Below are positions 6,850 through 44,235 of a stretch of DNA of 64,000 nt, piece after piece. The position numbers and the translations under genes are program-made. How positions within the stretch are numbered: position 1 is the stretch's first letter; each line of letters opens with the position of its first letter. The notes beneath the pieces were generated by a model, which saw only the letters and a program-made list of their open reading frames with translations, was not told the DNA's origin and ran no database searches. This DNA is from Octopus sinensis (Eukaryota), in the NCBI RefSeq assembly GCF_006345805.1, contig NC_043016.1, positions 372,001 through 436,000 of the forward strand, read 5' to 3'.

Positions 6850-7080
6850 TGGCAGCGAACTGGCAGAATCGTTAGCACGCCGGGCGAAATGCATAGCCGC
6901 ATTTCGTCTGCCGCTACGTTCTGAGTTCAAATTCCACCGAGGTCGACTTTGCCTTTCATCCTTTCGGGGTCGATAAATTAAGTACCAGTTACACACTGGG
7001 GTCGATGTAATCGACTTAACCCCTTTGTCTGTCCTTGTTTGTCCTCTCTGTGTTTAGCCCCTTGTGGGTAGTAAAGAAAT
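6850..7080 (+). mobile_element. tRNA-derived SINE family A (Meta-domain-like body), representative copy
   Basis: A box tggcagaatcgtt, B box gagttcaaattc, body gactttgcctttcatcctttcggggtcgataaattaagtaccag; well-preserved copies at about 18882, 26436, 34222, 36374, 38379 and 43707; many older copies in 51465-61330. Meta-domain assignment is from memory. Confidence 0.9.
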
Positions 7081-19168: not shown

Positions 19169-19199
<31 letters not shown>

Positions 19200-19329
19200 G
19201 ATAAAGCTGGTCGAGAGAGAGAGATGAGGAAGATGTAATGAGGGATACACTCAAGTTACAGTAAGGTCTATCTCTCTCTCCCTCTCTCTCTCTACCTCTC
19301 TTTCCCCCTCTCCCCCCTCTCTCTATATA

Positions 19330-20887: not shown

Positions 20888-21371
20888 GTGTATGTATGAG
20901 TGAACTTTAGGTTGGTTAAAACATGTTTGTGACACATTTTCTAAACCAAAATCGCTGCAGTTACTATGGAGAAAAAATTCTCCCTTATGGTAAAAACATT
21001 ATATCTGTCCAGTACTGATATGTGTGTGTATGTGTATGTGTGTGTATACATATATTTTAGTTTGACTTGTTTATTTTTGTCATTGTCTTGTATGTTCGTT
21101 AGCTATTCCCAGTGGCTTTTTCTGCACTCTGTGCCTCCAAGAAGGAATTGTCTCAATGAAAGCAGCATGAAATTATTATGATCTCTTGGACATTGACTGA
21201 TGTTTGTTTTTGTTAAATTTGCTGGTTGTTATGATTTTTAAAACAAATCCTTGAAATATGTGTGTGTGTGTGTATGCATGTGTGTGTGTATATGTTTTAA
21301 ATATATTTTTAAAAAGCCAGTACAATGAATGTTAAAAAGTACTTGTTAGTGATTTAGTACTGTTACTTGGT

Positions 21372-21411
21372 ATTTTGATATTTCAGGGTTAGGAACCCTT
21401 CTTCAGGAAAT
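21372..21411 (-). ncRNA. Minimal type I hammerhead ribozyme motif (Penelope-type)
   Basis: Reverse strand reads atttc CTGAAGA agggtt-cct-aaccct GAAA TA TC aaaat: intact core, 6-bp stem II, palindromic AUAU helix III; first pair of stem I is a C-A mismatch. Confidence 0.75.
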
Positions 21412-22487
21412 TTACAGAGAAAAGCTGTTGATACTAACGGTTGATGCTTGATGCATATTATTAATTTTTGTATAAGTTGCCTCACGAAAAATATTTAAAA
21501 TATTTATATGAAATGATGTTTCATGAAAACTTATACTACAGTAATATGAGGATGACTCATCTCATCAGATGATTGCTATCGCATGCTCTGCGTGATTGTT
21601 CTGATTTACTTTCATCCTTACATATGCACAGATATCCATCACTGTAACACTGTAAGACATTATAAAATACAGAACGGAACAAGAAATGAAACGATAGTGA
21701 AACATCTGTGTGTCATGGGATTTAAATGACAAAAGCTTGTGCAACACTTTTGCCAGTCTCTCAATCACCATAGTAAGTTTCAGTGACAGGCATCGCATGA
21801 TGGACTGGGTACTATTTTGATTGTAAGTTTTATGCCAGAGTATCTTTTCTCCTAGAAGAGGTACCTTTCCTATGGTTTTGTCAAAAAGTAATAAGAGCCC
21901 CCTTCTACTCTTGGGAAAGCTATTTAACCCACCGATGGCACCTTGACAAGTTCTACCATTCTGGGTCTCACACACACACACACACACACACACACCTTTC
22001 TTTACTTTTATCTTTTACTTGCTTCAGTCATTAGACTGCAGCCATGCTGGAGCACTGCTTTGAAGGGTTTTAATCAAACAAACTGACCCCCAGTTCTTCT
22101 TTGTGTCTTTAATCTTTTATTCATTTCAGTTTATATATATGCTGTCATCATCATCATCTTCATCATTTATAGTCTGTTTCCCATGCTGTCATGGGTTAGA
22201 TGGTTTGACAGGAGCTGGAAAGGCTGGGGGTGGGGGTGGGAGCTGCACCAGTCTTCCATCATTTGTTTTGGCATGGTTACGTCAGTTGGACAACCTTCTA
22301 AATGCCAATCACTTTATGGAGTGTACTGGTACTTTTTATGTGACACCGGCACTGACAGGGTCACCAAGTAACTAGCAAGACAATTCATCTTAAAGGAGGG
22401 AGTTGTAGTGACAAAGTAGGCTTTGTGCCAGTGATGAGACATTAGAGGTATAGTCTATATACATATAACCTAAGCATATATACATAC

Positions 22488-22544
<57 letters not shown>

Positions 22545-22546
<2 letters not shown>

Positions 22547-22813
22547 CAAAGTAAGATAGGGGTTATGAAAGTAACCCGCTATGGTATATCAGTTATCCAA
22601 TATACTGCTGGTGAAGTACCTAAATACTAAATACATAAATGCTTTTAATTGCAATGCAATTAATTCATTTATTGTATTGAATGGGTGAAGGTAAAAAATA
22701 TTTTACTGTAAATTCATAATACAAATAAGAAAATGGAGGAACAAATTCATTTCAATCATCAACTTACGGATGATGATCGAAATGAATTTGATCCTCCATT
22801 TTCTTATTTGTAT

Positions 22814-22818
<5 letters not shown>
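22545..22818. mobile_element. Fold-back element inserted in (TA)n
   Basis: ~46-bp arms ataatacaaataagaaaatggagga.../...tcctccattttcttatttgtattat (about 22716-22817); element flanked by (TA)n on both sides. Confidence 0.55.
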
Positions 22819-22851
<33 letters not shown>

Positions 22852-23119
22852 ATATTGTTTACATATATATAAGAGAAATGTAAATATACATTACAAAGGA
22901 TATATTGTAAACAATAGAAAATTATTTACTAATATATCAATGGCTGGAACTTGCAATCAAAGAACTTTTTCATAAAAGAAGTATGTATGATTGTGAATAA
23001 ATCACAATTATAACAGAGAAGGTTTGGAAAATGCGTGGGATCCTCAGTACAGTTAAGTATATTTGAAAAAGTAAAAGAGTAACTTTACTAGTAGTTCTAA
23101 ACAATTTATATTTTGTTTT

Positions 23120-23395
23120 TTTGATTTGGTTTGCAAGATTCTTTATATGAGTTCGTGTGTTGAAGCATTTTCTGTTGTGTCTGGGGAGAGTCCTTCTCTT
23201 TTAGTGCCTTATAATATAACACACTCACCAGTAAAATTTCCACTTTTTTCTTATTTTTATTCTCCTAAAATTCTCATTGCGTCTTGCAACCTTTTCAATA
23301 GTTTTAGGAGAATAAAAATAAGAAAAAAGTGGAAATTTTACCGGTGAGTGTGTTATATTATAAGGCACTAAAAGAGAATGAGTCTCCCCAGACAC
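23120..23395. mobile_element. Fold-back element, 94-bp arms
   Basis: Arms 23177-23270 and 23302-23395 are near-perfect reverse complements around a 31-nt loop; adjacent to a Penelope-like coding remnant. Confidence 0.75.
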
Positions 23396-23429
23396 TAATC
23401 AATTTAGCTTTTTAATAAAATAATTTTAC

Positions 23430-23770
23430 AGTTTGGTTTGTAGATCTGGTTTTTTTTTAGGTTGGGTGCTTAGCATCTGTGATATATTATTTGTGAGTCT
23501 TTTATGAGTGCATTCATTTTGGGGGAATTGCTGGAGAATTGGGAGCTATTGTTTGGCGGCTTTCACAATATTGAAGTTTCTTGGGTTGTGAGTGATGACA
23601 AAAGGGATAACTGTTTTTCCCTTTTTATTTTGTTGGTTTGTTTTTCTCAGTGTTGTCATTGGAATGTTCTTGGTCTTAGAGATGGCCTTACTGATGTGGT
23701 TCCCCAAATATTCTTGTCTTTTAAGGAACCATTTTTGTTCATATAAATTTTTTTTTCCTGTAGTGTTGGG
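23430..23770 (-). pseudogene. Penelope-like retroelement ORF remnant
   Basis: Reverse strand translates LKRQEYLGNHISKAISKTKNIPMTTLRKTNQQNKKGKTVIPFVITHNPRNFNIVKAAKQ*LPILQQ, resembling the PLE RT-thumb/linker (IPFVxTxNP). Confidence 0.65.
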
Positions 23771-23807
23771 TGTGTTACTATGGTGCAGATGGGTCTAGCC
23801 ATGTTAA

Positions 23808-23849
<42 letters not shown>

Positions 23850-23855
23850 CTTCTT

Positions 23856-23946
<91 letters not shown>
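23808..23946. repeat. Compound (TTG)n(TTC)n(TTA)n microsatellite
   Basis: Three abutting pure triplet runs. Confidence 0.95.
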
Positions 23947-23947
<1 letters not shown>

Positions 23948-24878
23948 GCCAATGGGCTGTCGGAATCACTGGACAAAATTATCTATCTTCATTTTTCTGA
24001 GTTGAAAAATCTGCCTAGGTTGACTTCTCGTTCTTTTGGCATCATTGAAATAAGCATCATTTGATCACTGGGTCCAGTTTAATTGACTTCCCCTTTCCCC
24101 TCTAAAATTACTGGCCTTGTGCCAAAATTTGAAACCATATTCCACTGAGGTCAACTTTGCCTTTCATTCATTTCATTTGTGTTTGATGTAATAAGTACCA
24201 GTTGCATACTGGGGGTTAATGTAATCAATTATCTCCCTCACCACCAAATTCCTGGCCTTGTGTATAATAGAAAAGAATAGAATGGTGTTAGTTATGTTGG
24301 TATTGATGATGGTGGTAGGGATGCTGGTGCTGATGGTGGTGGTGGTGTTGATGTTGATGTTGAAGTCGATGATCTGATACCAAAGTTTAATACATGTCAA
24401 AATGAATTTACATTAGACTTGTTTATTGCACATGTTGTTGTTGTTGTTGTTGTGGTTGTGTTCTTGGTGGGCTTTTTTTTCCTATTCGATCAATGCTATA
24501 AGACAAAAAGGGAAAATTTAAGAGCAAAAAAGACCAAAAAAAAACTAAACAAAAACAAAAAAAGGGAAATTTTAAGAGCCCCCACCCCCTCAATACAAAC
24601 AAACAAACTAAAAAAAAAGAAGAGCCTTCAAAAACCTTTAAATATTGAAGAGAAATGGCTTAGGAATTGAAATAGCATTTCTACAGAAAAATGTTGAGAA
24701 GAAGGGGGAAAAAAGGGAGAATATTGATATCAGGTTTATTTTAGTCACAAAACAAACTGTAAAAAAAGACAAAAATATAAAAATAAACAAGTGAATCTTG
24801 TTTATTTTTCATTCAGATTTTACTTATTTCAACTATATTCAATATTCTAAAATGCAGCTTTGGAACCATGTTAAGTTG

Positions 24879-24917
<39 letters not shown>

Positions 24918-25538
24918 GTTATCATCATCATCATCATCATCAAGGTGAGCTGGCAGAACCGTTAGCAAAGAGGAGATGAATATGCTTAGTGGCATTTCAT
25001 CCCTTTGTGATCTGAGTTCAAATTCCGCGCCGAGATTGACTTTGTCTTTCATCCTTTCTCGATCATTTAAATACTCACCAGTTGAGCACCGGGAAAGGGG
25101 TGGGGGCTGATGCAATCAGCTATCCCCCTACTACTCCTCCAAAATTTCATATCTTGTGCCTTTAGCAGAAAAAAATCCTCCTCCTCCTCCTCCTCCTGTT
25201 TTTCTTTTTCTTATTATTTAGTTTTTAATCTACTTGTTTGGTACAATCACTTGCCGGAACAAAACCCAGCACCGTATGGCAAGTGAAGGTTAAGAGATGT
25301 TTAATGTTCAGATATGTTTGTTATTATTATTGTTGTTGTTATTAATATTTTTTATGTTATTGTCATCATCATCATTTCCTTCCTCTCTTAATTCAACTTT
25401 GCGGCTCATATCAATTTGGCAGCTTTCTGTGAAGATGTCTTTCTCCCAACGTGATAGTTTTACACATACACATATGTATGCGTGTCTCTCTATTCACATC
25501 CATCTATCTCTCTGTCTGTCCCTTTCTATCTATCTAGC

Positions 25539-25570
<32 letters not shown>

Positions 25571-25599
25571 TGTTTATATATATATATATGTTTATATAT

Positions 25600-25639
<40 letters not shown>

Positions 25640-27268
25640 GGACAGACACTACACACACATATATATATAAATAAAAATAAAATAATGATAATGAAATTAT
25701 TGTATACAGTGCTCAGGTGCACCATATATATATATACATGCATACACACATGCATGTGTATATACACACATGCATGTGTATATACACACACATGCAGACA
25801 TACACCCACTCACAAATAGTCTATAAAATATTCTATAAAACAATGAAAGCTGTGCACACCAACCTTTCATTCCAGAATAAATATTGATTATGAATTCCTT
25901 TAAACCAATCTAAGAAAAATACTAAATGGTTAAAAAAAAAGTAACAAAAAAGCAAAAACAAAACAAAACAAAAGAAGCAATGTTGCGTTAACAGAAATGC
26001 AAACGCCCTCTCATACATACACACACACACACACACATTCCTTGACATGCATTTATCTTTTATAAAACCTGTATCACAAGAATTGTGATGTTATGTGACA
26101 GTTACAAACGTCTTTAAGCAGAGATTTGTGCTATTGCTTGTGAGATACAGGCTTAGTGTGACCTCATAGAATGGGAGTGGAGATAATGAAATATGAGGAG
26201 AGCCAATGTTACTACTGCTTTGCTGTGGAACTAAATGCATTACTCTCGGCTGTTGAACTGTATTCTGTAATTACTATAGGAGTGGCTGTGTGGTTAGATG
26301 TTCATTTCTCAACTACATGGTTCCGAGTTCAGTCCCATTGCATGGTACACCTTGGCCAGTTGTCTTCTGCTATAGCCTTGGGCCAACCAAAGCCTCGTGA
26401 GTGAATCTGGTAGACAGAAACTGAAAGATGAAAAGTGGCGAGCTGGCAGAAACGTTAGCACGCCAGGCGAAATGCTTAGGGTATTTCGTCTGCCATTACG
26501 TTCTGAGTTCAAATTCTGCCGAGGTCGACTTTGTGGGTAGTAAAGAAATAGGTAGTTCGTCTGCCGTTACGTTGTGAGTTCAAATTCCGCCGAGGTCGAC
26601 TTTGTCTTTCATCCTTTCGGGGTTAATAAATTAAGTACCAGTTACGCACTGGGGTCAATGTAATCGAATTAATCCCTTTGTCTGTCCTTGTTTGTTCCCT
26701 CTATGTTTAGACCCTTGTGGGCAATAAAGAAATAAGAAACTGAAAGATGTCTGTTGTTAATATATCAGTACTTGACAGGTGCTGCTACCCTGGGTCAGTA
26801 GACCTGGGAACAATTCTACTTAAGAGATGTTTCTGACTCCACAAATCCCTGAAACTACCAAATGCAGTTTAAAGTCTTACCCAGGATAATATGTCTTTTA
26901 TTTTACTTGTTACCAGTCATCAGACTGCAGCCATGCTGGGGGCACCACCTTGAAAAATTTTTAGTCAAATGAATCAACTCAAGCACTTATTCTATCGATC
27001 TCACTGCCATACTACTAAGTTACAGGAACATAACCGCCACCAACATCAGCTGTCAAGTGGTTTGGTGGTGGGGGACAAACACAGACACAAAGACACACAT
27101 ACATATATATATATATATATTATATATATATATATATATTATATTATATACACTTGCGTCGGAAATTATTAGCACTTCTCAAATTTCTACATTTTCTTAC
27201 ATTTCTTAATTTAATTAACTTATTATCAGAAACGAACTCGTTTTTAATCAAAAATTTATTAAAACATA

Positions 27269-28275
27269 TCAGCACACCACATAATTGTTATTAATCGTGA
27301 AATTAGTCAATATCTTGTTGCTCCTCCTTTGGCAGCAATGACAGCTGCTACGCGGGTCGGCATGCTGTCTATGAGTGCCTGCAGGTACTGTGCAGGGATG
27401 GCCCCTCATGCAGCAAGAAGTGCCCAAACAGCTCGTGTCGGTTCCTGTATTGCTGCACATTCAAATCCCTACCCAATCGACTCCAGAGGTTCTCAATAGG
27501 GTCAGGTCAGGTGACTGGCGCCAGTCCATGACCGTCACCCCATGGTCCTTGAAGAAACCGGTTGTGAGCTTGGCTGTGTGGGAAGGCGCGTTGTCCTGCG
27601 GGAGCACGTACTCCTCGCCACCAAAGAGGTATCCCGTACTATCTCAACGTACTTTGCTGCGTTGATGTTGCCTTCGACGGCATAGAGCTGCCCAACACCA
27701 CTGTAGCTGTGCCCCTCACACCATCCACCACCCCACCATGTTCATGGTGGGAGCAATGCAGTCTTGTTGAAGCGCTCACCCCTGCGGCGTCGCACATGGA
27801 AAGGCTTGTCACTGAAGAGACTGAATCGCGACTCGTCAGTGAACATCACTGTTCGCCACTGCTGCACGGTCATGTCTTGTGGGCACGGGCCCAGAGCAGC
27901 CGCCTCTTCTGGTTTTGGGCTGTAAGGAGCGGGCTTACGGGCGGCCCTACAGGATTTTAGACCAGCTTCCAGTAAATCTGGTCTTGACGGTGGTTGTAGA
28001 CAACTGCTTCCCTGTCATCTTTTGCATCTCCTCCGCCAGTTTGCCGGCTCGTTGCCCTTCGGTGGTACAGTGACTTTCGGATCAGCATCCGGTCCTCCCG
28101 CTGGGTCGTCAGCCTCTTCCGTCTCCTACCCTTTTTGTCAGCTGCTGATCGGTTTCCTCGTATTCTTAAATAAGCACTGAATTGTGCGCCTGGCTACACC
28201 AAGTTTTCTGGCTATTGCAACCTCTGACAGCTTCCAAGCCCCAGAGAGAGCCTTGTACCGTCTCTCCAAGGTCAT
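27269..28275 (-). pseudogene. Tc1 transposase pseudogene
   Basis: HTH (IARKLGVARRTIQ), VMFTDESRF, QDNAPSHTAK and DWRQSPDL..IENLW motifs; stop at about 28138 and several frameshifts. Confidence 0.92.
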
Positions 28276-28450
28276 GCGAGGTCTGGGCCCATCTTGGAAT
28301 GAACGATAAAAACCAGTTATTTTATTAAAACTATTCATTTGAATAATGTTATGCTATAACAAAACTGCTATGAGTTATTATTCATTAAACAAAAAAGAAA
28401 GAAAGCAGAATTTCTCACCTTATTTGATGTATACCAGAAAGTTTTGTGAA

Positions 28451-28465
28451 CCGGAAGTGACGTCA
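28451..28465. promoter_or_regulatory. ETS-CRE composite motif upstream of the Tc1 transposase
   Basis: Exact CCGGAAGTGACGTCA, about 175 nt 5' of the transposase ATG (28275, - strand). Confidence 0.55.
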
Positions 28466-29449
28466 CCAAGCAGAGTGTAGGAGAATTGTGAGGGAAAAAA
28501 AATCTTGCAAATACACAAATCAATTAACCTACGAGGTTCAAAACGTCTTACGCGATGAGAAAACTTAGTACGGTGTGATTTCGGTCCTTGCGAGGCACTA
28601 CCTATGTCTATTAAACAAAGGAAGATTTGTCTGCATCCGCACTCCAAGTTGTTGTTGCACTGCTATGTCAACATCATTAGGCTGTAGGCTCTCAAACCGC
28701 TCTGCAAACAAAGTTACATCATCGTTCTGCGCAACAGTGAACTCGCAACAAAGCAATAGTTCGAGATATGGCCTCTAGGTGACAGCAAATACCTTGAGTG
28801 AAGAGCAAATCAAGGGTGCTAATTAATTTCTGACGGTAGTGTATATATCCAAAGGTCTTGTTTCAGTTTCTGTCTGTCAAATCCACTCACAAGGCTTTGA
28901 TAGGCCCAAGTCTACAGTAGAAGACACTTGCCCAAGGTTTCACACAGTGAACCAGGTGTTTGGGAAGCAAGCTTCTTACCTCACAGCCATACCTATCTAC
29001 TTATAACCTATATATTATATATATATATATATATTATATAGATATTATATATATATATAGAGTGTACTTTTAAACACGTAAGATTTATCCGTCATAGGAT
29101 TCCTTCATGCTAGAGGGAACAGTTAAAGTCCAAATCACTATTAGGATAAAAACTTGAAAGGAATGAAAAACAAAACTTTAAAATAAAACCATTGTTCATG
29201 CTTTTGTTATGCTATAGTTGCTTTTGTTTTTCTTGTACTCACCCTGTCCGGTCTTTGTTTTCATTTCACTTATATACACTTACTTTAACTTAAGTGTACA
29301 TCATGTCAAGGCTTCATTATCTCCCCCACCCTCTCTCTCATCAACTGTGGTAGCCATGTATCACTCCTACTGCAAGACACCTATTACTATCTCTGTTCAT
29401 ACTCTAACCTCTCACCACTTGGCTCAGTAGTGCTCCCTTCCTCAGTTAA

Positions 29450-29670
29450 CCCTTTCATTACCAACCCAGCTGAAACCAGCTCTGGCTCTTTAGTATAAAT
29501 GTCTTCCTTTCATAAATTTTGAATTAAGATCTCCCACCAAACCTTAGTCACAATTTATGTTCCTAACACTAGCTGAATGATAACTAAGTTATTTTACTAA
29601 ATTCTTTGTTACATTTAAAGTAACTGAAAGAAACACAGAGCATCTCAAAATAAATACTATAACGAAAGGG
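29450..29670. mobile_element. TTAA-flanked MITE (piggyBac-like)
   Basis: TTAA|CCCTTTCATTA...TAACGAAAGGG|TTAA; related copies at about 41160-41378 and 33707-34146. Confidence 0.75.
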
Positions 29671-29948
29671 TTAAGGGTGCCTTGTCTTGCAAGTTATTTG
29701 GTGACCTTAATAGTTATATGGTGCCACATAAAAAGCACCCAGCACACTGTAAAGCAGTTGGCAATTAAAAAGACATCCAGCCATAGAAACTAAGTCAAAG
29801 GAGACAGCAGATCTTGGCATAGTCTTCTGATTTGTCAGCTTCTGTCAAACTAAACCATCCAGCCTATGCCAGCATGAAAAGAGAACATTGATGATGCTGC
29901 TGCTGATGATGATGATCCTGTTACTGTTGTTCTTGCTGTTGTGGTTAC

Positions 29949-30291
29949 TGTTTGTTTGTTTGTTTGTTAGTTGGGCGAAGTGGTCTTCGTCCCAGAGCTC
30001 GCAAGATCGCGCCTCTGTAGTGGGAGAAGTCCGAAACGTGGTCCTTTGCTATTCGTAAGACCCGCAGAAGACCCGGTTGTGTAGGAAGTCGGGGACAAGA
30101 AACAGGAAGAAAGAGTGAGAGAAAGTTGGAGCGAAAGAGTACAACAGGGGTCACCACTACCCACTGCCAGAGCCTCATGGGGCTTTTGGTGTTTTCGCTC
30201 AATAAACACACACAACTCCTGCTCTGGGAATCGAAACCGCGATCCTCCATCCGCGAGTCTGCTGCCCTAACCACTGGGTCATTGCGCATCC
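29949..30291 (-). mobile_element. SINE with family C head and a different 3' tail ending in (AAAC)n
   Basis: Shares about 200 nt of 5' sequence with 9144-9451 up to ctctttcttc, then diverges. Confidence 0.85.
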
Positions 30292-30864
30292 ACTGCTGTT
30301 GTTGTGGTTTGCTGTATAGTTGTTGTTGTTGTTCTTCTGCTACAGGTGTTTTTTACTGTTGTCACTGTTATCGCTGCCAATGCTGCTACTGCTACGTCCT
30401 CTTATGCTTGTTGTTGTTTTTTGTTTTAATACTCTATCATGTTAAAAAGATCTTCATAATTATTATCAGTTATATTTTCATCTTGGTATTTAAGGAATAA
30501 TCTCCTTAATTACTAGTGCTGCTACTACTTGTACTTATAATCAACACCAATCATCCTCTCTCTCTCTCTCTTCTAGGAGGAGATTTATTTTTCACTCTCA
30601 TCTGCTTAACACCACCAGACTCTCTTTAACACCTTCTACCCTTTAAATCTTCTCATGGGGCTTTAGACAAGAGTCACATATGTTTTTTTTTTCCTTTCTC
30701 TTTTTGTTTTAATTTTTTTTTTACATAATCCACAATGTCTATGATTTAACGCACACACACAGATGCACTTTGAGGCAGGCCATGCAACGGATTCGCAAAG
30801 CTACGACACTTGTAATCATAATGCGCTTGTTACCAACCATCATTATTAACACAACAAGCGGGGC

Positions 30865-30887
30865 AACTGCTGCTGCTGCTGCTACTA

Positions 30888-30919
<32 letters not shown>

Positions 30920-31090
30920 ACTACTACTACTGCTACTGCTGCTGCTTTTACTACTACTACTACTACTGCTACTACTACTGCTGCTACTACTACTGCTGCT
31001 ACTACTACTGCTGCTACTACTACTACTGCTACTACTACTGCTGCTATTACTACTACTGCTACTACCACTGCTACTGCCGCTATTACTGCC
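30865..31090. repeat. Compound (CTA/CTG)n microsatellite
   Basis: Alternating actactact/gctgct units. Confidence 0.95.
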
Positions 31091-31239
31091 ACCTTTAACT
31101 GCATCAATCTTATCAACACTGCCAAATGTATACGATTGGTGATGATGGGGCATCACTCACTGTAGCAACACTAAACAATTGTTTTTTTGTAACGTGTGTG
31201 TGTGTGCATATATGTAAATAAATATCTTGAAGTATATAT

Positions 31240-31575
31240 CATCATCATCATCGTTTAACATCCACTTTCCATGCTAGCATGGGTTGGACGAATGACTGAG
31301 GGTTGGCAAACCAGATGGCTGTGCCAGGCTTCAATCTTGATCTGGCAGAGTTTCTACAGCTGGACGCCCTTCCTAATGCCAACCACTCCGAGAGTGTAGT
31401 GGCTGCTTTTACATGCCACCGGCACGAGGGCCAGTTAGGTGGTACTGGCAATGACCTCGCACGAATCTTTTACACATGCCACTGGCACAGGTACCAGTAA
31501 GGCGATGCTGGTAACGATCATGCTCAAATGGTGTCTTTTACGTGCCACCTGCATGGAGGCCAGTGCCCCCGGCAC
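31240..31575 (-). mobile_element. Non-autonomous retroelement family D with (GAT)n tail, representative copy
   Basis: 3' end ccaacccatgctagcatggaaag...gttaaacgatgatgat and internal ggcattaggaagggc.tccagc; copies at about 1220, 10060, 11114, 15760, 17192, 18590, 22146 and 31580 (-), and 780-1060, 4710-4915, 9735-9872 and 29690-29915 (+). Confidence 0.85.
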
Positions 31576-33204
31576 GGATCATCATCATCATTATTTAATG
31601 TCCTCCTTCCATGTGTTTGACTTTTTGACAGGAACTTGCCAGGCAGAAGCCTGCACCAAGCTAGGCTTCTGTGTCTGTTTTGGCATGGGTTTTTTACAGC
31701 TGGATGCTCTTCCTAACACCACCCATTCTGCAGATTCATGCATACACACACAAACACACACACACACACATATAGACATATACGTACTTGAATCAGAAAG
31801 TGAAAAATGAGTGCCCAACGCTGCATTGGCGGATAGATCTTATTTACTAGTGGATTAATGAGGCAATCAGTGATTCATGTGAAAGGCATTTCCACTATTG
31901 TTCAAATGAACCACAGAGGGAATGTTGGTACTTATTTCTATTATCTATGCTTTTTTTAACTCACCAATAAAGTATATTTATCCACCAATGCAGTGTTAAG
32001 CACACATTGTCACTGTTCCATGTAGTAGTGTATAGTAGTGCTTCTGGTATTCTTAAGCACCAGACAAGCACTAGACACAAACAAGGAATAAAAACAAACC
32101 ATGTGGGTCCTGGGGTTGATTTCCTTGACTAAAGGTGGCACTCCAGCATGGCTGCAGTCAAGTGACTGAAACAAGTAAAAGAGTAGAAGAGTAAAGAGGA
32201 AAGAGAGTAGTCTGAATGCTAAAGCGTTATACATACACATATGTATATCCTTTCAGCCTTTAACCTGGCTAGATCTGGCCTCTCTCACCAAGCATACAAT
32301 GCCATTCTAAGAAATAAACAATCACATCATTGAAATATAGAAGCTGCGAGATAATGCAAAATTAATTGAAAACAATGTGAATCATCATCATCATTCATCA
32401 TTGTTCGACTGTGGTCCAGACAATGGAATTTACCATGCTACACCAGACTTCACAGTCCATCATAACAATGTGAATAAAGAAGTATAACATTTGAGAGAGT
32501 TATTTCCATGTTGGGTAGGGTTAAAAGCAGAGACTCATCTTCACCAGCTGGGAATTTAGAGAAAGTAAGAATACACATTTTAAGGATAAGAATGTCATGA
32601 AAAGATAAACCTTATCAGTTTACTATCCTGCCCACTTACCCTGTCCAATCCTTTGTAACACTTCACTTACCAACTCTACCTTAAGTGTATGCCTCCCAAC
32701 CATAAACACCACTACCTCTCTTTGTTTTTCTCCTTTCTTTTTCCAACTGGGTTAGCCAGCCATATATTTCCTCTATCTCTATCTTTCTGTTATACTTTTT
32801 AACCTCTCTTCAGTTGGCAGGGAGCCACCCTTCACTACTACTCCCTCTCCCTCGGTTGAGAGGTCTTGTTTCCTTGTTCTGCAGGCCCCAGTACTGTCAG
32901 TCATTAAGGCCACCAAATCATGGACAGATTTATGACCTTAAAGCACCATTCTGTTATCTCTCTGTCTCTCTCTCTGTCTTTTTATTTATTTTTCCCTTTC
33001 TCTCTTTAGAGTTTCTCTCTGTCCATATCTAAGATTTATTTTGTCTCTTCAGTTGGCTAGGGGTTCTTTTGATGCAGGGGTGAAGGGGTTCTTGTGTTCA
33101 TTCATATATGCAACATTAAATGTATGTCAGACAAACATATTCTGTGCATTTTTTGTATGCTTATGAATAGTTATTTACATAGTGTCTCATTAATAGCTTG
33201 TGTG

Positions 33205-33450
33205 TATACATACACACATACATACATACATACACACATACACACATACATACATACATACATACATGCATACTACATACATACATACATACATACATAC
33301 ATACATACATGCACACATGCACACATACATACATACATACACACACATGCACACATGCATGCATACATACATACATACATACATACATACACACACACAT
33401 ACATACATACATACATACACACATGCACACATGCATACATATGTACATAA
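33205..33450. repeat. (TACA)n/(CA)n microsatellite
   Basis: Direct reading; source of several spurious ORFs. Confidence 0.95.
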
Positions 33451-34554
33451 TATGAACATATGTATGTAATATGCATGTACATATGTAATACTATAAAATG
33501 TTCAGGGTCTGATAGAACCCCATCTGTGTTATCGTTTATGTATGTACATGTGTGTGCGTGTGGGCATGCGTGTATGTGTGTGTGGGGTGGGTGGGGGTGG
33601 GGTGGAATCATGTGTTTGGGGTTCAGGTGCAATGCATGTGTTTGGGTTCAACATGCAAGCTGCAATGTAAACAAAGGAAAGCTTGAAATGGTGTACTGCT
33701 GTGGTTTTAACCTTTTTGATGCCAACCCATTTAAGACCACCCTTGGGTCTTTGATAGAAGCTTCGTGTTTTGAAGTGATTTTAATAAAAATACTTCATTG
33801 AAAATTTCATGTTATTACATTTGATGGCATAAATGATACACGGGTATATTAAATGCACCCAGTTTTCTGAAGCATATATTCAGGAAAAATTGAGCACCAA
33901 GGACAGAATGGAAAGCCCAAAATATGGGAAGTCCTCTCATGTAGGATCCAGAAAGATTTCTTGTGATATATTTTTGGAAACAAAAAAATTGTATCTTATA
34001 TGCCATCAAATGCAATAATTTATATTCCAAACCCCAGCTTAACACTGAGAAGGTTATTTTGGTAAATTCTTCATTATTTTCAATTTATTTGAAACAGTGG
34101 TGGCAGTATATTCCAAGAGAAATATGCTGCCTAATAGAAGGGTTAATAACGAGATTGGTTTGAAAGTTCCAAAACGTAATCCATACAGAAGCCACTTGAA
34201 GAAGCCAAAATGTTGAGACTGTAGAGCTGGCAGAATCGTTAGCATGCCGGGCAAAATGCGTAGCCGTATTTTGTCTGCTGTTATGTTCTGAGTTCAAATT
34301 TCACCGAGGTCGACTTTGCCTTTTATCCTTTCGGGGTCAATAAATAAAGTACCAGTTACACACTGGGGTCGATGTAATCGACTTAATCCCTTTGTCTGTC
34401 CCCTCTATGTTTAGCCCCTTGTGGGCAATAAAGAAATATATACTGGTGCATTATAATGGTAATTTTTTATCTCAGAAATTCTGGTGGAAATATCTTTTAT
34501 TATTTAATTTTTCTGTATTTCAACTAATTTTAATTTTTTAATTTTTTAACCCAG

Positions 34555-34728
34555 GCTCAGATAACAAAATCATGGAATCACTACTCGCAATAGAAGCACA
34601 GCTTGATAAACTATATGCAACACCAGATCCTGAAGTACCTGAAAATGAGGTGAAGTTTATGTCCATTGTATCAGATCTAGCTGATAGAGAATTAGTCGTT
34701 ACAATTAGCTGGGCAAAACAAGTACCTG
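34555..34728 (+). CDS. ERR: ERR exon, LBD helices 1-3
   Basis: Long T-rich tract + ccag acceptor (second in-frame cag at 34558-34560), gtaagt donor; (R)SDNKIMESLLAIEAQLDKLYATPDPEVPENEVKFMSIVSDLADRELVVTISWAKQVP(G) contains the ERR motif DLADRELVVxIxWAKxxPG; phase matches both neighbours. Confidence 0.96.
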
Positions 34729-37132
34729 GTAAGTGATTGTTTTGGGTATTAATAATTTCATATTAATTATTCTATATAATGAACACTAACAACACAAAAT
34801 AATAACGACAAAAGAAAAAAAGCTAAGGTGAAGGAACCTCTATGTGGTTATGCTTCCTGCTGTTGTATATAATAGCCAAATCATTTTCACTGACATGATT
34901 GGCAATTTGCAGTGCTTAAGAAAACCTGCTTAGCTAAGTAAAAATTGAGGCCATCATGTCATGTCCACACCCGCTGCAAACAATCTGTCCCTGAGAAATT
35001 TCTCTCCCCAACAAACCCACCTTCTTAACATCTTCCTCTCTTCCCTCCACCCATATTCACCACTTGCTGCACTCTTCTCCTTTCCATCCCTTATTCTGTC
35101 TTTGTATCCTTGCAAACCTACCAACACATTATTTGTCCCTTTTTTTACCTCTTCTGCACAACATAACCTCCTAACATCTCTCTCTTTGTGTCCACTCACT
35201 ACATTCTTCCTCTCCTCCACCTCCCACTTACCTTCACAGTCTTACAAACTCACCCACCCACTCATCCAATCCCATCCCTGGTTCTGCTTCACTTATATAC
35301 ACCTCCCTCTAACTTGAGTGTAACATCTTCACCATCATCTCACTCCCTTCACTGTCACTCCTCCACTTTAAGACACTTATTTCTTACCCTCTCTTCAACT
35401 GGCGCGCACACACACACACACCTAACGGGTTTCCTACAGTTTCCATCTAGCAAGTCAACTCATGGTTTTGCTCAGCCTGGGGCTATCATAGAAGACACTT
35501 GCTCAAGATTGCACACACTGTGGGACTGAACCCGAAACCATGTGTTTTGGAAGCAAGCCTCTTATCAAGCACCCATGCCTGTGCCTATGCAAAAAAAGTT
35601 TAGGAAAAGAAAAAAAGAAAAAAAAGCTTGAAAAAAACTGTGATGTTGATATTATATTATCTATGTTGTTTATCCTTCAGCTCCTCATAATAATCCTGTT
35701 TGCTTTTAATCTTCTTCCATTTATCATAATTCTGAACATCTGGATTGCATTGTATTGGTTTCAGGAACCCCATTTTGGCTATTCATATTTGCCATCATAA
35801 TCTTTTGGTCATTGCCCACTATCCATTGCCATATGTAAGGTTAGGCAGGGAATCTGAATTGAAGATAGTGATTTTGCCATTAGAAAAATTTTTTTTTTAC
35901 GAACCCTTCCTTTTGTAAAGATCAAATGCTGGTAAAGTACTGAAATAAAAGATGTAATCAACTGGATATGTGATGTCTGAGATGGATTTTAGCTTTTCTG
36001 CTATTAAACAAATATTTTGAATTGAACATTTAATAGGTATTTAATGGAAAAGGGAGAAAGTGGGAGAAGAAATCATTAATTAAATGAATTGATTAATTAG
36101 TTTGAGATTGAACTGTATTTGACAGTTAAGTAGTAAAGATAGAGAAAGAGAGAGAGAAAGAAAGAGAATTAGAGTGAGAGGGGATGCAAAAGAGAGAGAG
36201 TGTGTCTTGGAGGTTCTGAATGTGTTTGATGTAATGACTGTCTTGTACTGAATAAACTATTTTAAAATATGGTGTTCCTCATAACTAGTAGAACTACATC
36301 TGAAAGATTCAAATGTGGTAGTACTTTTGGCTGTATCAAAATATATAGCCGTGTATATCAAAAATAATATATAGGCGGTGAGCTGGCAGAAATGTTAGCA
36401 CGCTGGGCGAAATGCATAGCTGTATTTCATCTGCCTTTACGTTCTGGGTTCAAATTCCGCCAAGGTCGACTTTGCCTTTCATCCTTTCGGGGGTCGATAA
36501 ATTAAGTACCAGTTATGCACTGGGGTCGATGTAATCGACTTAATCCGTTTGTCTGTCCTTGTTTGTCCCCTCTGTGTTTAGCTCCTTGTGGGCAGTAAAG
36601 AAATATATATCAAAATATATAGCCATCTATATAAAATATATAGATGGCTCAGACGTGGCTGTGTGGTAAAGAAGTTTGCTTCCCAACTACATGGTCCTGG
36701 GTTCAGTCCCATTGCGTGGCACTTTCTACTCTAGCCTTCGGCTGACCAAGTCTTTGTGAGCAGATTTGATTGATGGAAACTGAAAGAAGCCCGTCATATA
36801 TAATTTCCAGCATGGAAGACGGATGTTACTTGAGGATGATGAGATATATAAATATGTATGTACGTGTGTCTTTGCATCTGTGTTTGTCCCCCACTAACCG
36901 ATTGACAACCAGTGATGGTGTGTTTACATCCCCATAACTTGGCAGTTCAACAAAAGAATCCAATAGAATATGTACCAAACTTGAAAATAAGTACTGGGGT
37001 CCTTTGGTTTAACTAAAACCCTTTAAAGCAGTGCTCCAACATGGGTGCTGTCTAATGACTGAAACAAGTAAAAGAATGAAAGACTATATATATATATATA
37101 TACATATATATCATTATCATATCATCATCATT

Positions 37133-37163
<31 letters not shown>

Positions 37164-37262
37164 ATAGTGAAAATTTTATTTTCATGTGTAGAATATAAAC
37201 ATGTACATCTTTTAGAACATTGTGATTTTGTAAGATTTTGCTGGCAAATTTTTGAATTAACG

Positions 37263-37820
37263 TAATAATATAATAATGAAATTATTGTATACAGTGCTCA
37301 GGTGCACCACAATTTGTCAAAAGTGCATATAAAGCACATGCAGTAATGTAGAAATGCCTGGAAAGTGAATAGTGTATGAGTCAGATACATGCTTGCGTGT
37401 GTATGGAGGGGAGAAAATCAGGTGTAGTGTTGGCGAATCTCAGAAAGCATGGAAGTTTTGAAGGATGCAGTGCTCCGACAACTAACAACTGATGCCGGCA
37501 GTTTGTTCCATGCTTCAGCATTTCTAACGTGAAAAAATGTTTCCGAAAGTCATGGGAGCTGTGCTGTTTTTCTGACTTTGTAAACATGTCCACGGGTGTT
37601 AGACAGGTGGAGTTTGAAAAGGTGCTCAGAGTTATTGTTTGTAAGATGGTGAATAATTTTATGGGTGTCTGCCAAGTCAGCTGCCAGACATTGGAGTTTC
37701 AATGTATCCATGCCCAGGGAATTAAGGCGTTCAGAATATGGCAAATGCCTAATGGAGGGTATTCTCTTGGCTGCATGTCGCTGAACAACTTCCAGACAAT
37801 TAATATCCTGGGTAAATAAG
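37263..37820 (-). mobile_element. CR1-clade LINE 3' fragment
   Basis: PYSERLNSLGMDTL, NTRGHVYKV, RKHFFTL..AEAWNKLPASVV; (ATT)n tail; the same 3' terminus recurs at about 25681-25724. Confidence 0.85.
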
Positions 37821-37924
37821 CATTTACATGAAAGAAAATTACCAGAGAAATTTCATCTAATTCTTCCAAATTTTTCTGTTAAAACTGTATTGAAATCATT
37901 TGTGGGTGATTTTTTTATTTATCC

Positions 37925-39240
37925 CAGCAACTGGTCACACACCACAAGGTTTAATGGAACCTACTGAAGCAAGCTAGCATTCTTGCAGCACTACCACAGG
38001 TGATGTTGAGGCTAAGGTTTTAGGAAGGCCAAGCACCCTCACGGGCATTACCTGACACCTTGGTGTGGTGAGCTGCCAACATTGAGAAGAACTTCATGGT
38101 TAGTGGCACTGTCCCTCCGAACATCTCAAACATCACTGGTTGGAAGAGATAGTTCACCGTCAGGTCCGATACTTTAGGGTTTTCTTCTGTTTGGCTATGG
38201 AAGCAGTGACTCTTCCATTAACTGCAGCATCCATGATGTGAGAGGGAGCAAAGAAGCTGCAGACTGTGGTGTCCCAAATGAGGCACCTCCCTCTAACCCA
38301 GGGACAGAGAGTAGGACCATCTGGTCTCTTTCCATCACTTCTGTATAACCCCAATGGCGCCTGAACTGATGGGATTTAAGGCGGCGAGCTGGCAGAAACG
38401 TTAGCACGCCGGGCAAAATGCGTAGCTGTATTTCGTCTGCCATTACGTTCTGAGTTCAAATTTCACCGAGGTCGACTTTGCCTTTCATCCCTTTGGGATT
38501 GATAAATTAAGTAGCAGTTATTCGCACTGGGGTCAATATAATCGACTTAATCCATTTGTCTGTCCTTGTTTGTCCTCTCTGTGTTTAGCCCCTATTTCTT
38601 TACTACCCACAAGGGGCTAAACACAGAAAGAAATAAGGATATTAATCTGAGTCAGGGTCTGCTTAATGATTAGGTTTAGCAGCGTGTGACAAGCGAAGTG
38701 ACCAGCATTTAGGTGGCTATAGGCAGACTGTGAAAACTTGTGGAGTCGAGGGACCTAGCACAGCAGCATCTCAGTCCCTTACAGACGTCAGCTCCCACTC
38801 TGAGTGCAGTGGAGATGTGGGATTCATCAAGACTGACTAGACTCCAATGATGGCCTCAGGCAAGGCATCAATCCAGTCCCCTGAGAATTTTACACTAGCT
38901 GAAAGTTGGCGACACCTTGAAAATTGATCGGATTCATAAAGGAGAGAGTTGAAAGTGGGACCTGAATGCAGATTGACCCCATAATCTCTATTTCTCTTTC
39001 TATCCTCCACTGTAACTGGAACTGACAAACCCACTGTGATATAAAGCTTCATTCATCTCCCTGTTGGAATTAGTCCATGCTGGAGAGGAGAGGATGTTGC
39101 CTGCCAAAGGGGAGCAAGTGTGGATGGAGAAAAGAAGACAGCAAAGAGATAAAGACAAGCACTTGCGCAGACCTTGACCCTAAACTGTTTGGGCAAAGCA
39201 GGTTGGTCGTGGGAGTCTGGGGAGAGTCTGACATTGACCT
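37925..39240 (-). mobile_element. CRE-like RLE non-LTR retrotransposon remnant, split by a SINE
   Basis: GLYRSDGKRPDGPTLCPWVRGRCLIWDTT...KKTLKY (PD..D..K restriction-like endonuclease) and SGDWIDALP. Confidence 0.8.
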
Positions 39241-39306
39241 AGCATTCACGTTTCTTATGTATATATACAGAGAGTGAGAGAGAAAGATACGTATATACAC
39301 GCATGC

Positions 39307-39348
<42 letters not shown>

Positions 39349-39669
39349 TATATATATAGCTACTGTTAAGAGCAAAGTTTATCAACAATGGAATGGCGAA
39401 AGGCAGTAAACGAAACACAAAAATAGATTAAAGATTGTGTACCTGCTCTTTTTCATGTTCATGTGTGGGCGTGTGCTTACATATATGCGTTATTGTGACA
39501 GCACAGAGAGAGAGAGAAGAAAGAGAGAGAGAGAGAGAGGGGCTCAATAATGTTATCTTAGATCGCAATGATAGGGGAGCTAACTCTCCGCTGTGTTATG
39601 ATATTGATGTTTCTCCTGTTGATTTTGAGATAGTTTTTCCATAACAGCTTATGAAACTATTCACACACG

Positions 39670-39714
<45 letters not shown>

Positions 39715-41855
39715 ACACACACACACACAACACACACACCCCACTCACACACGCACACACACACCACACCACACACATATATATGTAATATATGTGTGTG
39801 TATGTATTTTATTGTAGTACATACAAATGCAAGAATATATATATATATTTATATATATATATATATATATAATGTACATATAAGATGTGGGAGAGAGGGG
39901 GGAAGCAACAGAACCTGTGTACGCCTGTTTGGGGAAGAATTCGTTTGCAGCTGTGTATTCAAAAGTCTGCAAGGAGGTTTAAAGAATTGTCTAGACAGTG
40001 GCTGTTATCCTTGAAAAGCAAGAATAGATTCATTCCTGTTCTTGAAATGACAACTTTGGAAGTGAATACATGCTGTTCATAGTTCATCTGTAATTTAATC
40101 ATTCAACCGTATATTGTATGGTTCAGCGATTAAATTGTTGCAATCTTAATTAGAATATAACATTTAAAAAAAAATGTCTATTATATTCTAGTTAAGAAAA
40201 ATAAAAAATGATCTGTTTTACTATTTTGTGACAATATTTTAAACGAAATACACAGCTTACATTTCAATTAAGTTTGGTCAAGAATTTGAAGGGATTTTTG
40301 CAAAATAACTAACTTTATTCATGTAATGATATATTAAGATAGTATTAGAATCACAGCCTAGTAGAAAACTTTATTTAAATATGAAACACTTCAAAGCAGG
40401 TGGCTTTATGTGAAGGGAAGCAAAGAGTAGTGACTGGCTGTTAAGTATCAATAGGTTAATTTTTTTTGTTTTTGTTTTTCATTTCCTTCTTAAACATAAT
40501 TAAGAGGTTAAGTAGCCAGGTTTCTAGAATTGAATTTGTTGAGTTGATATTTTATTCATTGTATCTCCTTTTCCATATTCTGATCAGTCTGAAGAATTTT
40601 AACCAACTTACTGAGAGGAGATAGTATTGTGAAAATGAATATAAAAATTGCCAATAAAAATAAATAGTTAATTATAAATATATTATTATACTTTGGAACA
40701 GCCATATTGCCAATAAGAATCACACACACACACACACAGACACACACACACACACAACAGTTGTCATTCACTTCAATGTTAATTTACATTGTCAGAAATA
40801 CCCTAATAATATAATAAAATGTCTAGTGAGTATGTTTGTTGAAAGTATGACCCTCCCAAAATATAATAATATTGGCCTCAACATTGTTTCAGATCAAGAT
40901 TCTAGCAAAATAAATTCACAAATGAAATATTAGAAATACAATTTTCAAGTAGAAAGGGAATAATATTGTCTTAATATCTTTCGTGTTGATTTTGTCTTTG
41001 TTTATCTACCTCTAGGACAATTTAGAGAAACCTATAATTAAAGGTGTCCCAACTGTTTCTTTTTTCTTTACAAAAAAAATTTTTAGACATAGAATATCAG
41101 GGGGCTACAATATTATCTACTATCTTTTGTTTTATTTTTTCTTTTCTTTTTTGTTAACTTTAACTCTTTTGATACCAACCTGCCTGAAACCACTTCTGGC
41201 TCTGTAGTACAAATGACTTGTTTTCAAACATCCTGAATTAAAATCTTCCACCAAACCTTAGTACACAAATTTATGTTCCTAGCATTAGGTTAGTTATTTT
41301 ACTAAATTCTGTTATATTTAAAATTAATTGAATGAAACACAGAGCATCTCAACAGAAATATGGTAATAAAACGGTTAAGACAGTAAGGTGTAATTCAAAG
41401 GTGATTAGAGACACTTATTTCTTGCAAGCGAAGCAACTGCATGCGGATTCAGAGAGTTTGCAGAAAAGGTGGTGAGCTGGCAGAGTTATTACCATGCAAA
41501 GAGATATGTTTAGAGGTATTTTGTCCATCTTCTTAACCTGAGTTCAAATCCTGATGAGGTCAATTTTACCTTTCATCCTTTTAGGGTCAATAAAATGAGT
41601 AACAGTTGAGCACTTGAGTTGAATTAATTAACTTACATTTCCCCAGATCTTGCTGGGCTTGTGCCAAAATTTGAAATCAATATTTGCCATTTTGTAATAG
41701 CAAATATTTTTGTGTACACACACACACACATTCTTTTTATTCTGAATATATAATTAAAAAAAAAAATACTTTAATACTTCTAGAATATTTAATTTTCTTT
41801 TTATTCTGTAAAGCGGTAGCTCTGTCACTCCAATAACACACACACACACACACTA

Positions 41856-42083
41856 TTAAAAAGCGGCAAAAATATCACAAAAACTGTTACTCAGAGTTTC
41901 ATGTTTTCATTCATCGACAGTTTTGTTTAGAATCTAAACAAAACTGTCTGACGAATGGGAACGTGAAACTCTAAGTAACAGTTTTTTGTGATATTTTTGC
42001 TGCTTTTTAAAGCATATTACTCTACCTCTGGTATTTGAGTACCATTTTTTCCACCTTGTTTCGCATTTTTATGTGCTTACTCT

Positions 42084-42085
<2 letters not shown>
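41856..42085. mobile_element. Fold-back element with hammerheads, Penelope-like terminal fragment
   Basis: Inverted repeat 41856-42010 centred near 41932, plus ~75-nt unpaired tail ending in a (TA)n tract. Confidence 0.75.
41940..41985 (+). ncRNA. Minimal type I hammerhead ribozyme motif (Penelope-type)
   Basis: Stem I aaaactgt(41940-47)/acagtttt(41978-85); core CTGACGA 41948-54; stem II ATG-ggaa-CGT; GAAAC-tctaa-GTA with predicted cleavage after 41977. Confidence 0.8.
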
Positions 42086-42129
<44 letters not shown>

Positions 42130-42234
42130 ATATATAATTATATATATTACTTTATATAATAAATATATATATATATAAAGGAATGTATAATTTTTTTCAA
42201 TGCATATGTAATTTTTATCATTTTTACCCATCAG

Positions 42235-42510
42235 GTTTTGCCAGTCTCCCACTTGTTGACCAGATGAATCTCTTACAACATTCATGGCTAGAGATTCTAT
42301 GCCTCAATCTTGCACATCGATCCTGCCCTTACAACCACTTCTTAAAATTTGCCGAGGACTTCAAAATCGACCAAGAGCAAGCTGCAAACACATATGGTTG
42401 CTCACCCAAAATGGACAACCTTAGTAGAAAATTGGCCAGCAAAATAACGAGTCTTGGAGTGACTAAAGAAGAGTATATATTATTGAAAGCCTTAATTCTT
42501 TGCAATCCTG
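42235..42510 (+). CDS. ERR: ERR exon, central LBD
   Basis: catcag acceptor, gttagt donor; FASLPLVDQMNLLQHSWLEILCLNLAHRS...KEEYILLKALILCNP (within ORF 42183-42515); 276 nt, phase 1-1. Confidence 0.96.
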
Positions 42511-42766
42511 GTTAGTTTTAAATCTTTGATTTGAATGATAAAACTTTGAAACTTGATAGTTTATTTTTTGAGTTCCATTTTTAATAATAATATTAACCCT
42601 TTAGCTTTCAGATTAATCTGTCAAAGGTAATGCTTCATAGCTTTGAAATTTTTATGATGTGAATGCTTATTTTTAGAATGACATTGTAGGGTTGTTAAGA
42701 GAGGCCAAATCAAGCCAGGTTAAAGGCTAAAAGGATATATTTATGCTATGCATATGCATATGCAAA

Positions 42767-42810
<44 letters not shown>

Positions 42811-42821
42811 CACACACAAAC

Positions 42822-43143
42822 ACAATTGCAGCAAGGAAGGTGGTTATAAGCCATTTAAAACACGGAAAAACCGTTCAACATTTAAATTTAATGTGTCAAA
42901 ATATTTTCGTCGCTTTGAGACCACTGACAAAATTCTGTGATGCAGCATGGCATTTTGTCAGTGAACAGGTCATTATCTCAAAGCGATGAAAATATTTTAG
43001 CAAATTAAATTAAATGTTGAAGTGAATCTAATGGTTTTTGTGTTTTCTTAAATGGCTTACAAACACCTTCCATGCTGCAATTGTTTTTCTATCAGCACAT
43101 GGTCTCAGATCAGGTTACTTGCTGTGCAAGTACATCTCCGTAA
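42822..43143. mobile_element. Fold-back element with variant hammerhead, Penelope-like terminal fragment
   Basis: Imperfect inverted repeat acaattgcagcaaggaagg(42822)...ccttccatgctgcaattgt(43084), centre near 42942, plus ~60-nt tail; flanked by TA/CA microsatellite. Confidence 0.7.
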
Positions 43144-43993: not shown

Positions 43994-44235
43994 ATGTGAC
44001 TTCTGACAGTAATGGCTCAGTGAAACAACTTCAAGACAAATTCCATGATACTCTCATTGAATATGTAAAAACAAAGCACACTGGTAACATGCGTCGGTTG
44101 GGTCATCTCCTTATGCTTTTACCACACTTAACACATGTAAAACTGCTGGCAAGACAGTATTGGTTTGATGTAAAAAAGGACGGCCGCGTCATCATGCACA
44201 AGCTGTTTTTAGAGATGCTGGAAGCTGATTCTTGA
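43994..44235 (+). CDS. ERR: ERR last coding exon, LBD C-terminus with AF-2 helix
   Basis: ttctag acceptor; (D)VTSDSNGSVKQLQDKFHDTL...RRLGHLLMLLPHL...MHKLFLEMLEADS*; MHKLFLEMLEA is the ERR AF-2 signature; TGA at 44233-44235. Confidence 0.97.

Follow-up and report, generated by a model that had tools for sequence, protein, structure and literature searches.

Minimal type I hammerhead motifs with different Watson-Crick pairs at core positions 3 and 8 in high-copy mobile families of Octopus sinensis

The window analysed here, a 64,000 nucleotide stretch of the Octopus sinensis genome (contig NC_043016.1, positions 372,001 to 436,000), contains four repeat elements, designated A (at ~21.4 kb of the window), D (~23.3 kb), B (~41.9 kb) and C (~43.0 kb), each with a hammerhead ribozyme core. 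The reading that best accounts for the data, to which we assign a probability of roughly 0.78, is that each element is a decayed, 5′-truncated remnant from the end of a different high-copy mobile family, with a foldback structure in three of the four. In this reading family D is Penelope-like, a single copy points the same way for A, and B and C are likely of this type too. Within each family the sequence retains a minimal type I hammerhead with Watson-Crick partners at core positions 3 and 8 (C-G in A, C-G combined with a U4C change in B, G-C in C and U-A in D). Cutting is predicted to require a dimer, and the copies in the window are likely inert. An earlier note, made from the letters of this stretch, had proposed Penelope families with covariant hammerhead cores, and this Penelope reading is largely right, the finding being real at family level and weaker in the window.

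Repeat families, core states and Penelope-like frames

Each element belongs to a family of hundreds to thousands of copies. First-look searches of the 2.72-Gb genome returned 172 candidates for A, 2,948 for B, 3,485 for C and 2,656 for D (40 were scored for each family, and these figures are not copy numbers), and the family alignments comprised 29, 21, 22 and 29 distinct loci, respectively. All four majority sequences form a clean hammerhead with paired stems, in the type I order of stem I, core, stem II, GAAA and UH, and the cores GUGAACA and UUGAAAA are retained as the consensus of C and D. Family A has a stem I of 5 bp, the core CUGAAGA, a stem II of 4 bp and GAAA-UA-UU; family B has a stem I of 8 bp, a stem II of 3 bp with a GGAA loop and a near-palindromic helix III; family C has a stem I of 7 bp, a bulged G, a 5-bp stem II opening with G-C and the palindrome AAUAUU; and family D has a stem I of 3 bp, a bulged G, a stem II of 5 bp and the palindrome AAUU. 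The bulged base precedes G10.1-C11.1 in C and D, and stem II of A and B opens with A-U and has no bulge. The spans around A15.1-U16.1 are self-complementary in A, C and D and form a near-palindrome in B, and in structure prediction intact copies of A, C and D form both stems and leave the core open between them.

Arms covering the core, taken mostly from loci picked for their likeness to the window, had C-G at positions 3 and 8 in 33 of 37 cases for A and 39 of 44 for B, G-C in 40 of 44 for C and U-A in 28 of 29 for D. Genome-wide patterns in which positions 3 and 8 were left free, with listed rows counted by hand and reversed-pattern controls giving 0 matches, returned 1,994 matches for family C, with G3-C8 in 88 of 100 among the matches listed, and 2,222 for family D, with U3-A8 in 95 of 100 among the matches listed; the intact 52-nt G3-C8 motif of family C has 276 exact copies in the genome. 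CUGACGA, which had been taken as the canonical core of B, proved wrong at family level, as 84 of 100 among the matches listed, from a total of 322, read CCGACGA (U4C). The same 100 matches had U at position 4 in 15 cases and decay at two neighbouring CpG sites in 9 and 17; since a U at position 4 is about as frequent as decay at the neighbouring CpG sites, the CUGACGA of the window copy probably arose by CpG transition in a descendant of a U4C sequence. An exact CUGANGA core is therefore the family state of A only, B having CCGACGA, C GUGAACA and D UUGAAAA, and a CUGANGA search would indeed overlook families C and D, the greater part of B and two additional Penelope families.

One of these is a young Penelope family with intact 784-aa frames, 4.4-kb tandems, 97-99% identical endonucleases and a second frame upstream (L190:3230-6900, minus strand; L211:1-2401). 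Its U3-A8 motif lies ~750 nt after the frame end and ~120 nt before the next start codon, which places it between consecutive frames of the tandems, and the corresponding pattern gave 1,824 matches, with U3-A8 in 100 of 100 among the matches listed. The other family, which from its linker is Neptune-like (L141-L170), has an A6U core, CUGUUGA, in all 26 motifs found in 30 loci, located ~650 nt after the GIY-YIG frame. U4C was also observed beyond B, in two more families or copies with CCGACGA or CCGAUGA (L006:1883, L138:664 and L104:712), and C3-G8 hammerheads with a longer helix III and a palindromic loop, nearer to the canonical type, were seen at L180:8065 and L025:2768. A word in stem/loop II, GGUCUCAAA, is common to the G3-C8 family (window 42961-42990) and the young U3-A8 family (L211:951-992), and may possibly reflect common descent or a shared protein contact.

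As for the covariation claimed for positions 3 and 8, a Watson-Crick pair is kept across families in three forms, albeit with a thin covariation count. All ten families pair at these positions (7 C-G, 2 U-A and 1 G-C), giving p = 1/360 if independent, a value which is inflated because four families were picked for pairing, two rest on 1-2 copies and kinship is uncontrolled. Compensated changes within families numbered 0 in 100 listed rows of C and 0 in 100 listed rows of D, as expected for decay after insertion. In 625 kb not picked for the motif, searched with a descriptor in which positions 3 and 8 were fully free and compared with 12 shuffles, 9 Watson-Crick matches were obtained against a shuffle mean of 1.25, and 4 other matches against a mean of 2.4. 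Non-pairing singletons (5 of 12 descriptor singletons) were considered as real motifs and read as chance, their number matching that in the shuffles, and a U3-G8 match in L123 traces back to a C3-G8 family, of which it is a decayed member. When seven families were aligned by sequence alone, their cores did not fall into register. G5, G12, A13, A14, A15.1-U16.1 and H17 are fixed in every family examined.

The Penelope origin is directly evident for D and is indicated by one copy for A; for B and C no frame was found in the loci searched. Six of 40 family D loci reach at least 69 nt upstream of the cut site. Following this upstream region led, in three of seven loci (L257, L258 and L259), to the end of a reverse transcriptase (RT), a CxxC linker and a GIY-YIG domain, which share the strand of the core and precede it by 500-600 nt; in two more of the seven the RT/GIY-YIG frame is inverted. 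In family A, a GIY-YIG remnant is located ~240 nt upstream of the core in L100, with an independent E-value of 1e-4 that became 2e-7 with a larger profile. Long copies of B have ~700 nt of upstream sequence in common; C starts within 27 nt of G3 in 40 of 40 exact-motif loci. Insertions of B, C and D are truncated at the 5′ end, where a truncated copy in inverted orientation can be attached, have a one-sided tail and lie in A+T-rich or microsatellite targets; truncation and inverted copies were also seen for A. Of the 40 loci inspected for each family, 19 had an inverted arm in C and 17 in D, the arms being unequal and variable in length, and the ends of element copies often adjoin (TA)n. The same insertion pattern is described for Penelope elements (PMC8557442), and B and C are likely Penelope-like. 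The close same-strand pairs of C that were examined are duplications including flanking DNA, not head-to-tail tandem units. The 5′ ends were also seen to cluster ahead of the core, at distances between a few nt and 27 nt (D, L212-L251; C, L191-L210 and L263-L282), possibly marking transcription start at a terminal-repeat promoter.

Window copies and the surrounding receptor gene

A direct check of the window found the four core heptamers at the positions and on the strands claimed for them. Element A (21305..21445, minus strand, ends approximate) is the 3′ end of a probable Penelope-like family, present as a single arm without a foldback, and its C3-G8 hammerhead occupies 21372..21411, with the core CUGAAGA at 21406-21400. 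Element D (23105..23395, minus strand) has 94-bp foldback arms at 23177-23270 and 23302-23395 and a one-sided tail at ~23105-23176; its decayed U3-A8 hammerhead lies at 23265..23301, with the core UUGAAAA at 23298-23292. Element B (41862..42085, plus strand, ends approximate) comprises a hairpin at ~41862-42003 and a one-sided tail, and bears a C3-G8 hammerhead at 41940..41985 (window core CUGACGA at 41948-41954, 3-bp stem II, GGAA loop and near-palindromic helix III) together with a second, inverted copy at 41884..41925 on the minus strand, in which core position 4 is deleted. Element C (42823..43142, plus strand) has a hairpin at 42823-43086 and a one-sided tail to ~43142; a deletion took most of its left-arm core, and its G3-C8 hammerhead at 42954..43004, with the core GUGAACA at 42961-42967, is decayed in stems I and II. 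The foldbacks B, C and D have arms of 60-130 bp, foldback copies place two motifs on opposite strands, and all window copies are monomers.

The full architecture said to be shared by all four elements was recovered for B and A and is lacking in C and D. A descriptor limiting positions 3 and 8 to Watson-Crick pairs, run on the window and on the shuffled window, gave two matches (A and B) against a shuffle mean of 0.37-0.53, and one match against 0.08 in shuffles at a stem I of at least 6 bp. The B match (41948, plus strand) has a stem I of 8 bp and a stem II of 3 bp, while the A match (21406, minus strand) has a mismatch at the first stem I pair, owing to a change of G1.1 to A. Window copies C and D both failed the descriptor: in C, stem I and stem II are both broken, and in D the sequence reads GAGAA rather than the GAAA claimed and C11.1 is U. 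Measured against the majority sequence of its own family, a window copy is changed at 7-16% of the alignment columns, and no Rfam hammerhead family was among the best 150 of 349 window matches. When folded whole, elements B, C and D form long hairpins, with the motif buried in B (-91 kcal/mol) and C (-124 kcal/mol). The window copies are ordinary decayed insertions and likely inert: decay has damaged C and D, the orientation of A and D is opposite to that of the host gene, and long hairpins lock up B and C.

The description of all four elements as intronic is drawn from the receptor exons that flank them. A host exon at 42235..42510 (plus strand) encodes the ligand-binding domain of an estrogen-related receptor (ERR)-like nuclear receptor (Pfam PF00104, E 5e-12; ERR chains, E 6e-14), and the last coding exon, at 43994..44235 (plus strand), is by its sequence another ERR-like ligand-domain exon. 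Zinc-finger exons of a nuclear receptor are located upstream of the window on the plus strand of the same contig (C20:251117 and C20:360784), and the host gene would exceed 160 kb if both belong to it. Relative to this gene, A and D are antisense and B and C sense. The intronic foldbacks at 23177-23395, 41862-42003 and 42823-43086 (60-130 bp) would suit A-to-I editing as substrates; hyper-editing in octopus has been tied to abundant perfect duplexes, and a lizard Penelope is heavily edited (PMC5625713). Elsewhere in the window, a further long hairpin at 19160-19320 has weak matches to miRNA models in the Rfam scan and may be another foldback element, CUGAUGA followed by a 5-bp hairpin without GAAA lies at 21540-21570 on the minus strand, 150 nt upstream of A, and is perhaps a decayed motif, and an abundant dispersed repeat resembling a short interspersed nuclear element (SINE) is found at 6857-7034 and in ~18 other places (families D15-D19).

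Proposed mechanism and alternative explanations

A mechanism for these families can be proposed. In a read-through RNA, two motifs would pair via the palindromic helix III and cut occasionally (as suggested by PMC4209133), and this intermittent cleavage of the parent, as a dimer or with the help of protein, would maintain selection on the 3-8 pair and permit compensated swaps. Reverse transcription would start 30-150 nt downstream of the motif, at two sites, which would give the one-sided tail (by analogy with PMC11167929), and would mostly pass the uncut motif and stop just upstream of stem I, probably at the RNA 5′ end; two short cDNAs joined head to head would then yield the foldbacks. Inserted copies decay neutrally, with single, uncompensated changes only. 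The 5′ ends of D lie 35-54 nt upstream of the cut site, just before stem I, in 21 of 40 loci, and this position upstream of the predicted cut site indicates that most D copies were made from uncut RNA. Arms ending at the cut site had been suggested as a ribozyme footprint by window-like D matches, and this candidate failed in 40 downstream-anchored loci, where ends within -3 to +5 were found for 3 of 40 sense arms and 4 of 17 inverted arms, some of which the helix III palindrome can explain. Family C would likely be a short, non-autonomous member borrowing the enzyme of another family. A bolder formulation, which we hold only tentatively and at somewhat less than even odds, is that family C is a ~215-nt non-autonomous mini-Penelope of thousands of copies with a natural, selected, working G3-C8 core, the first in an animal. 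Alongside the families of this genome that have U3-A8, U4C or A6U cores, it would then make up a natural allelic series able to reveal whether cleavage is required by Penelope elements in the first place, and much of the hammerhead complement of genomes like this one would escape a CUGANGA search.

Several observations weigh against the reading of these families as Penelope-like elements with selected hammerheads. Core changes expected to hurt catalysis are fixed in families (U4C in B and A6U in the Neptune-like family), such that catalysis may be weakly selected; insertion in vitro had no need of cleavage and no reads ended at the cut site (PMC11167929). Dimer cofolding of A, C and D gave strand-swapped stems, not a paired helix III, and monomer folding z-scores are weak (-2.9 to +0.75). 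The Penelope link of A rests on L100, where the RT was not reached, and the six families other than A-D give 1/6 in the covariation count by themselves. It is conceivable, if unlikely, that these are hammerhead-derived motifs which no longer cut, the fold being a protein binding or pausing signal or a promoter part and the 3-8 pair structural only. The fixed U4C and A6U states favour this, as do the uncut motif in most D copies and in 40 of 40 pattern-anchored C copies (a sample selected for an intact motif) and ribozyme mutants without effect on insertion in vitro (PMC11167929). However, the invariant G5, G12, A13, A14, A15.1-U16.1 and H17 of all families examined argue against this, and the 3-8 pair is an active-site contact, at which an engineered G3-C8 partly rescues cleavage of a Penelope hammerhead (PMC11167929).

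That B and C are foldback DNA elements of the miniature inverted-repeat transposable element (MITE) kind, or SINEs of another retroelement with a captured hammerhead, appears improbable. Such an origin would fit the sharp 5′ limit of C and the failure to reach an RT/GIY-YIG frame for B in 6 long loci or for C in 40 exact-motif loci and 4 close-pair regions, samples that are small relative to the copy number and results that also count against a Penelope origin. It is at odds with arms that are unequal and variable, with 21 of 40 C loci having no inverted arm, with the one-sided tail and (TA)n at the ends, with an insertion pattern of B and C that matches both D and that of Penelope (PMC8557442), and with the long upstream region of B in its inverted copies. 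Hardly any credence is given to the idea that the window copies were co-opted and act within the introns as functional ribozymes in the processing of the receptor pre-mRNA. In its favour, B and C share the orientation of the gene and the right arm of B passes the descriptor, yet the decay of C and D, the antisense orientation of A and D, the burial of B and C in hairpins and the divergence from the family majority noted above all speak against it.

The need for cutting by Penelope hammerheads is debated (PMC8557442, PMC11167929). Under the preferred reading of decayed Penelope-like fragments, compensated swaps fixed in successful families argue for selection on the active-site pair. A weak or only occasional need is suggested by the U4C and A6U families and by the predominance of uncut RNA as the source of insertions. 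As both kinds occur side by side in this genome, including a young, intact U3-A8 family, the need for cleavage becomes testable with natural sequences. Search descriptors are best written with positions 3, 4, 6 and 8 unconstrained; short patterns matched exactly were by themselves enough to give ~6,000 matches to motifs with a non-canonical family core.

Comparison with known hammerheads and retroelements

Minimal type I hammerheads of metazoan Penelope elements were defined by Cervera and de la Pena in 2014 (PMC4209133), where motif pairs on opposite strands were noted and dimer activity was only low. Elements A-D resemble these in the short stem I, the NUGANNA core, the palindromic 15.2-16.2 positions, the terminal-repeat location, the mostly single copies and the opposite-strand pairs, and C and D also in the bulged base before G10.1-C11.1 (PMC4209133). 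The same paper reports U3-A8 in Schistosoma, with ~1,300 matches, and lists a UUGAAAA core for Schistosoma mansoni. Variant cores in Penelope hammerheads are accordingly real at family level and less new than had been implied, because U3-A8 in minimal Penelope hammerheads was already published (PMC4209133). G3-C8 and U4C are family-majority states here, in hundreds to thousands of copies, whereas neither was found in the consulted text and alignment of PMC4209133.

Natural U3-A8 covariation, and a U4C viroid hammerhead with lower activity, have been described by Perreault et al. in 2011 (PMC3088659), while natural G3-C8, the state of family C, is not named in the section of that paper on core variants. 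Natural core-variant ribozymes have tertiary contacts that can offset weak cores, unlike the minimal hammerheads, which are without them (PMC3088659). G3-C8 appears only as a laboratory variant in the excerpt of PMC3884650. No octopus Penelope hammerhead was found in the literature searched, at the level of listings. Lunse et al. reportedly compiled ~150,000 hammerhead variants. Natural G3-C8 was not found in the literature searched, which was consulted in part, and the alignments of Lunse et al., outside this comparison, may contain it.

Animal non-LTR (long terminal repeat) retrozymes are short, non-coding and hammerhead-bearing, and are thought to be mobilised by Penelope enzymes (PMC7229834; bioRxiv 10.64898/2026.07.22.740005). 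The elements described here are likewise short, non-coding and hammerhead-bearing, but while non-LTR retrozymes form head-to-tail tandem arrays, these elements occur as dispersed monomers and foldbacks with minimal motifs and tails. In the Anolis Poseidon element PAc, studied by Frangieh et al. in 2024, cDNA synthesis begins at two internal positions past the hammerhead and mainly copies RNA that has not been cut; cleavage requires protein, and an engineered C3G/G8C double mutant partly restores protein-assisted cleavage (PMC11167929). The octopus families are like PAc in having the hammerhead just upstream of the RT starts, a one-sided tail and an uncut template (PMC11167929). As the fixed state of a high-copy animal family, G3-C8 seems unreported. 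The G3-C8 of family C, for which cleavage is a prediction from sequence and the parent frame was absent from the loci searched, is a swap that was predicted and had already been engineered, present here as the natural state of a family whereas in PAc it is known as an engineered one only (PMC11167929).

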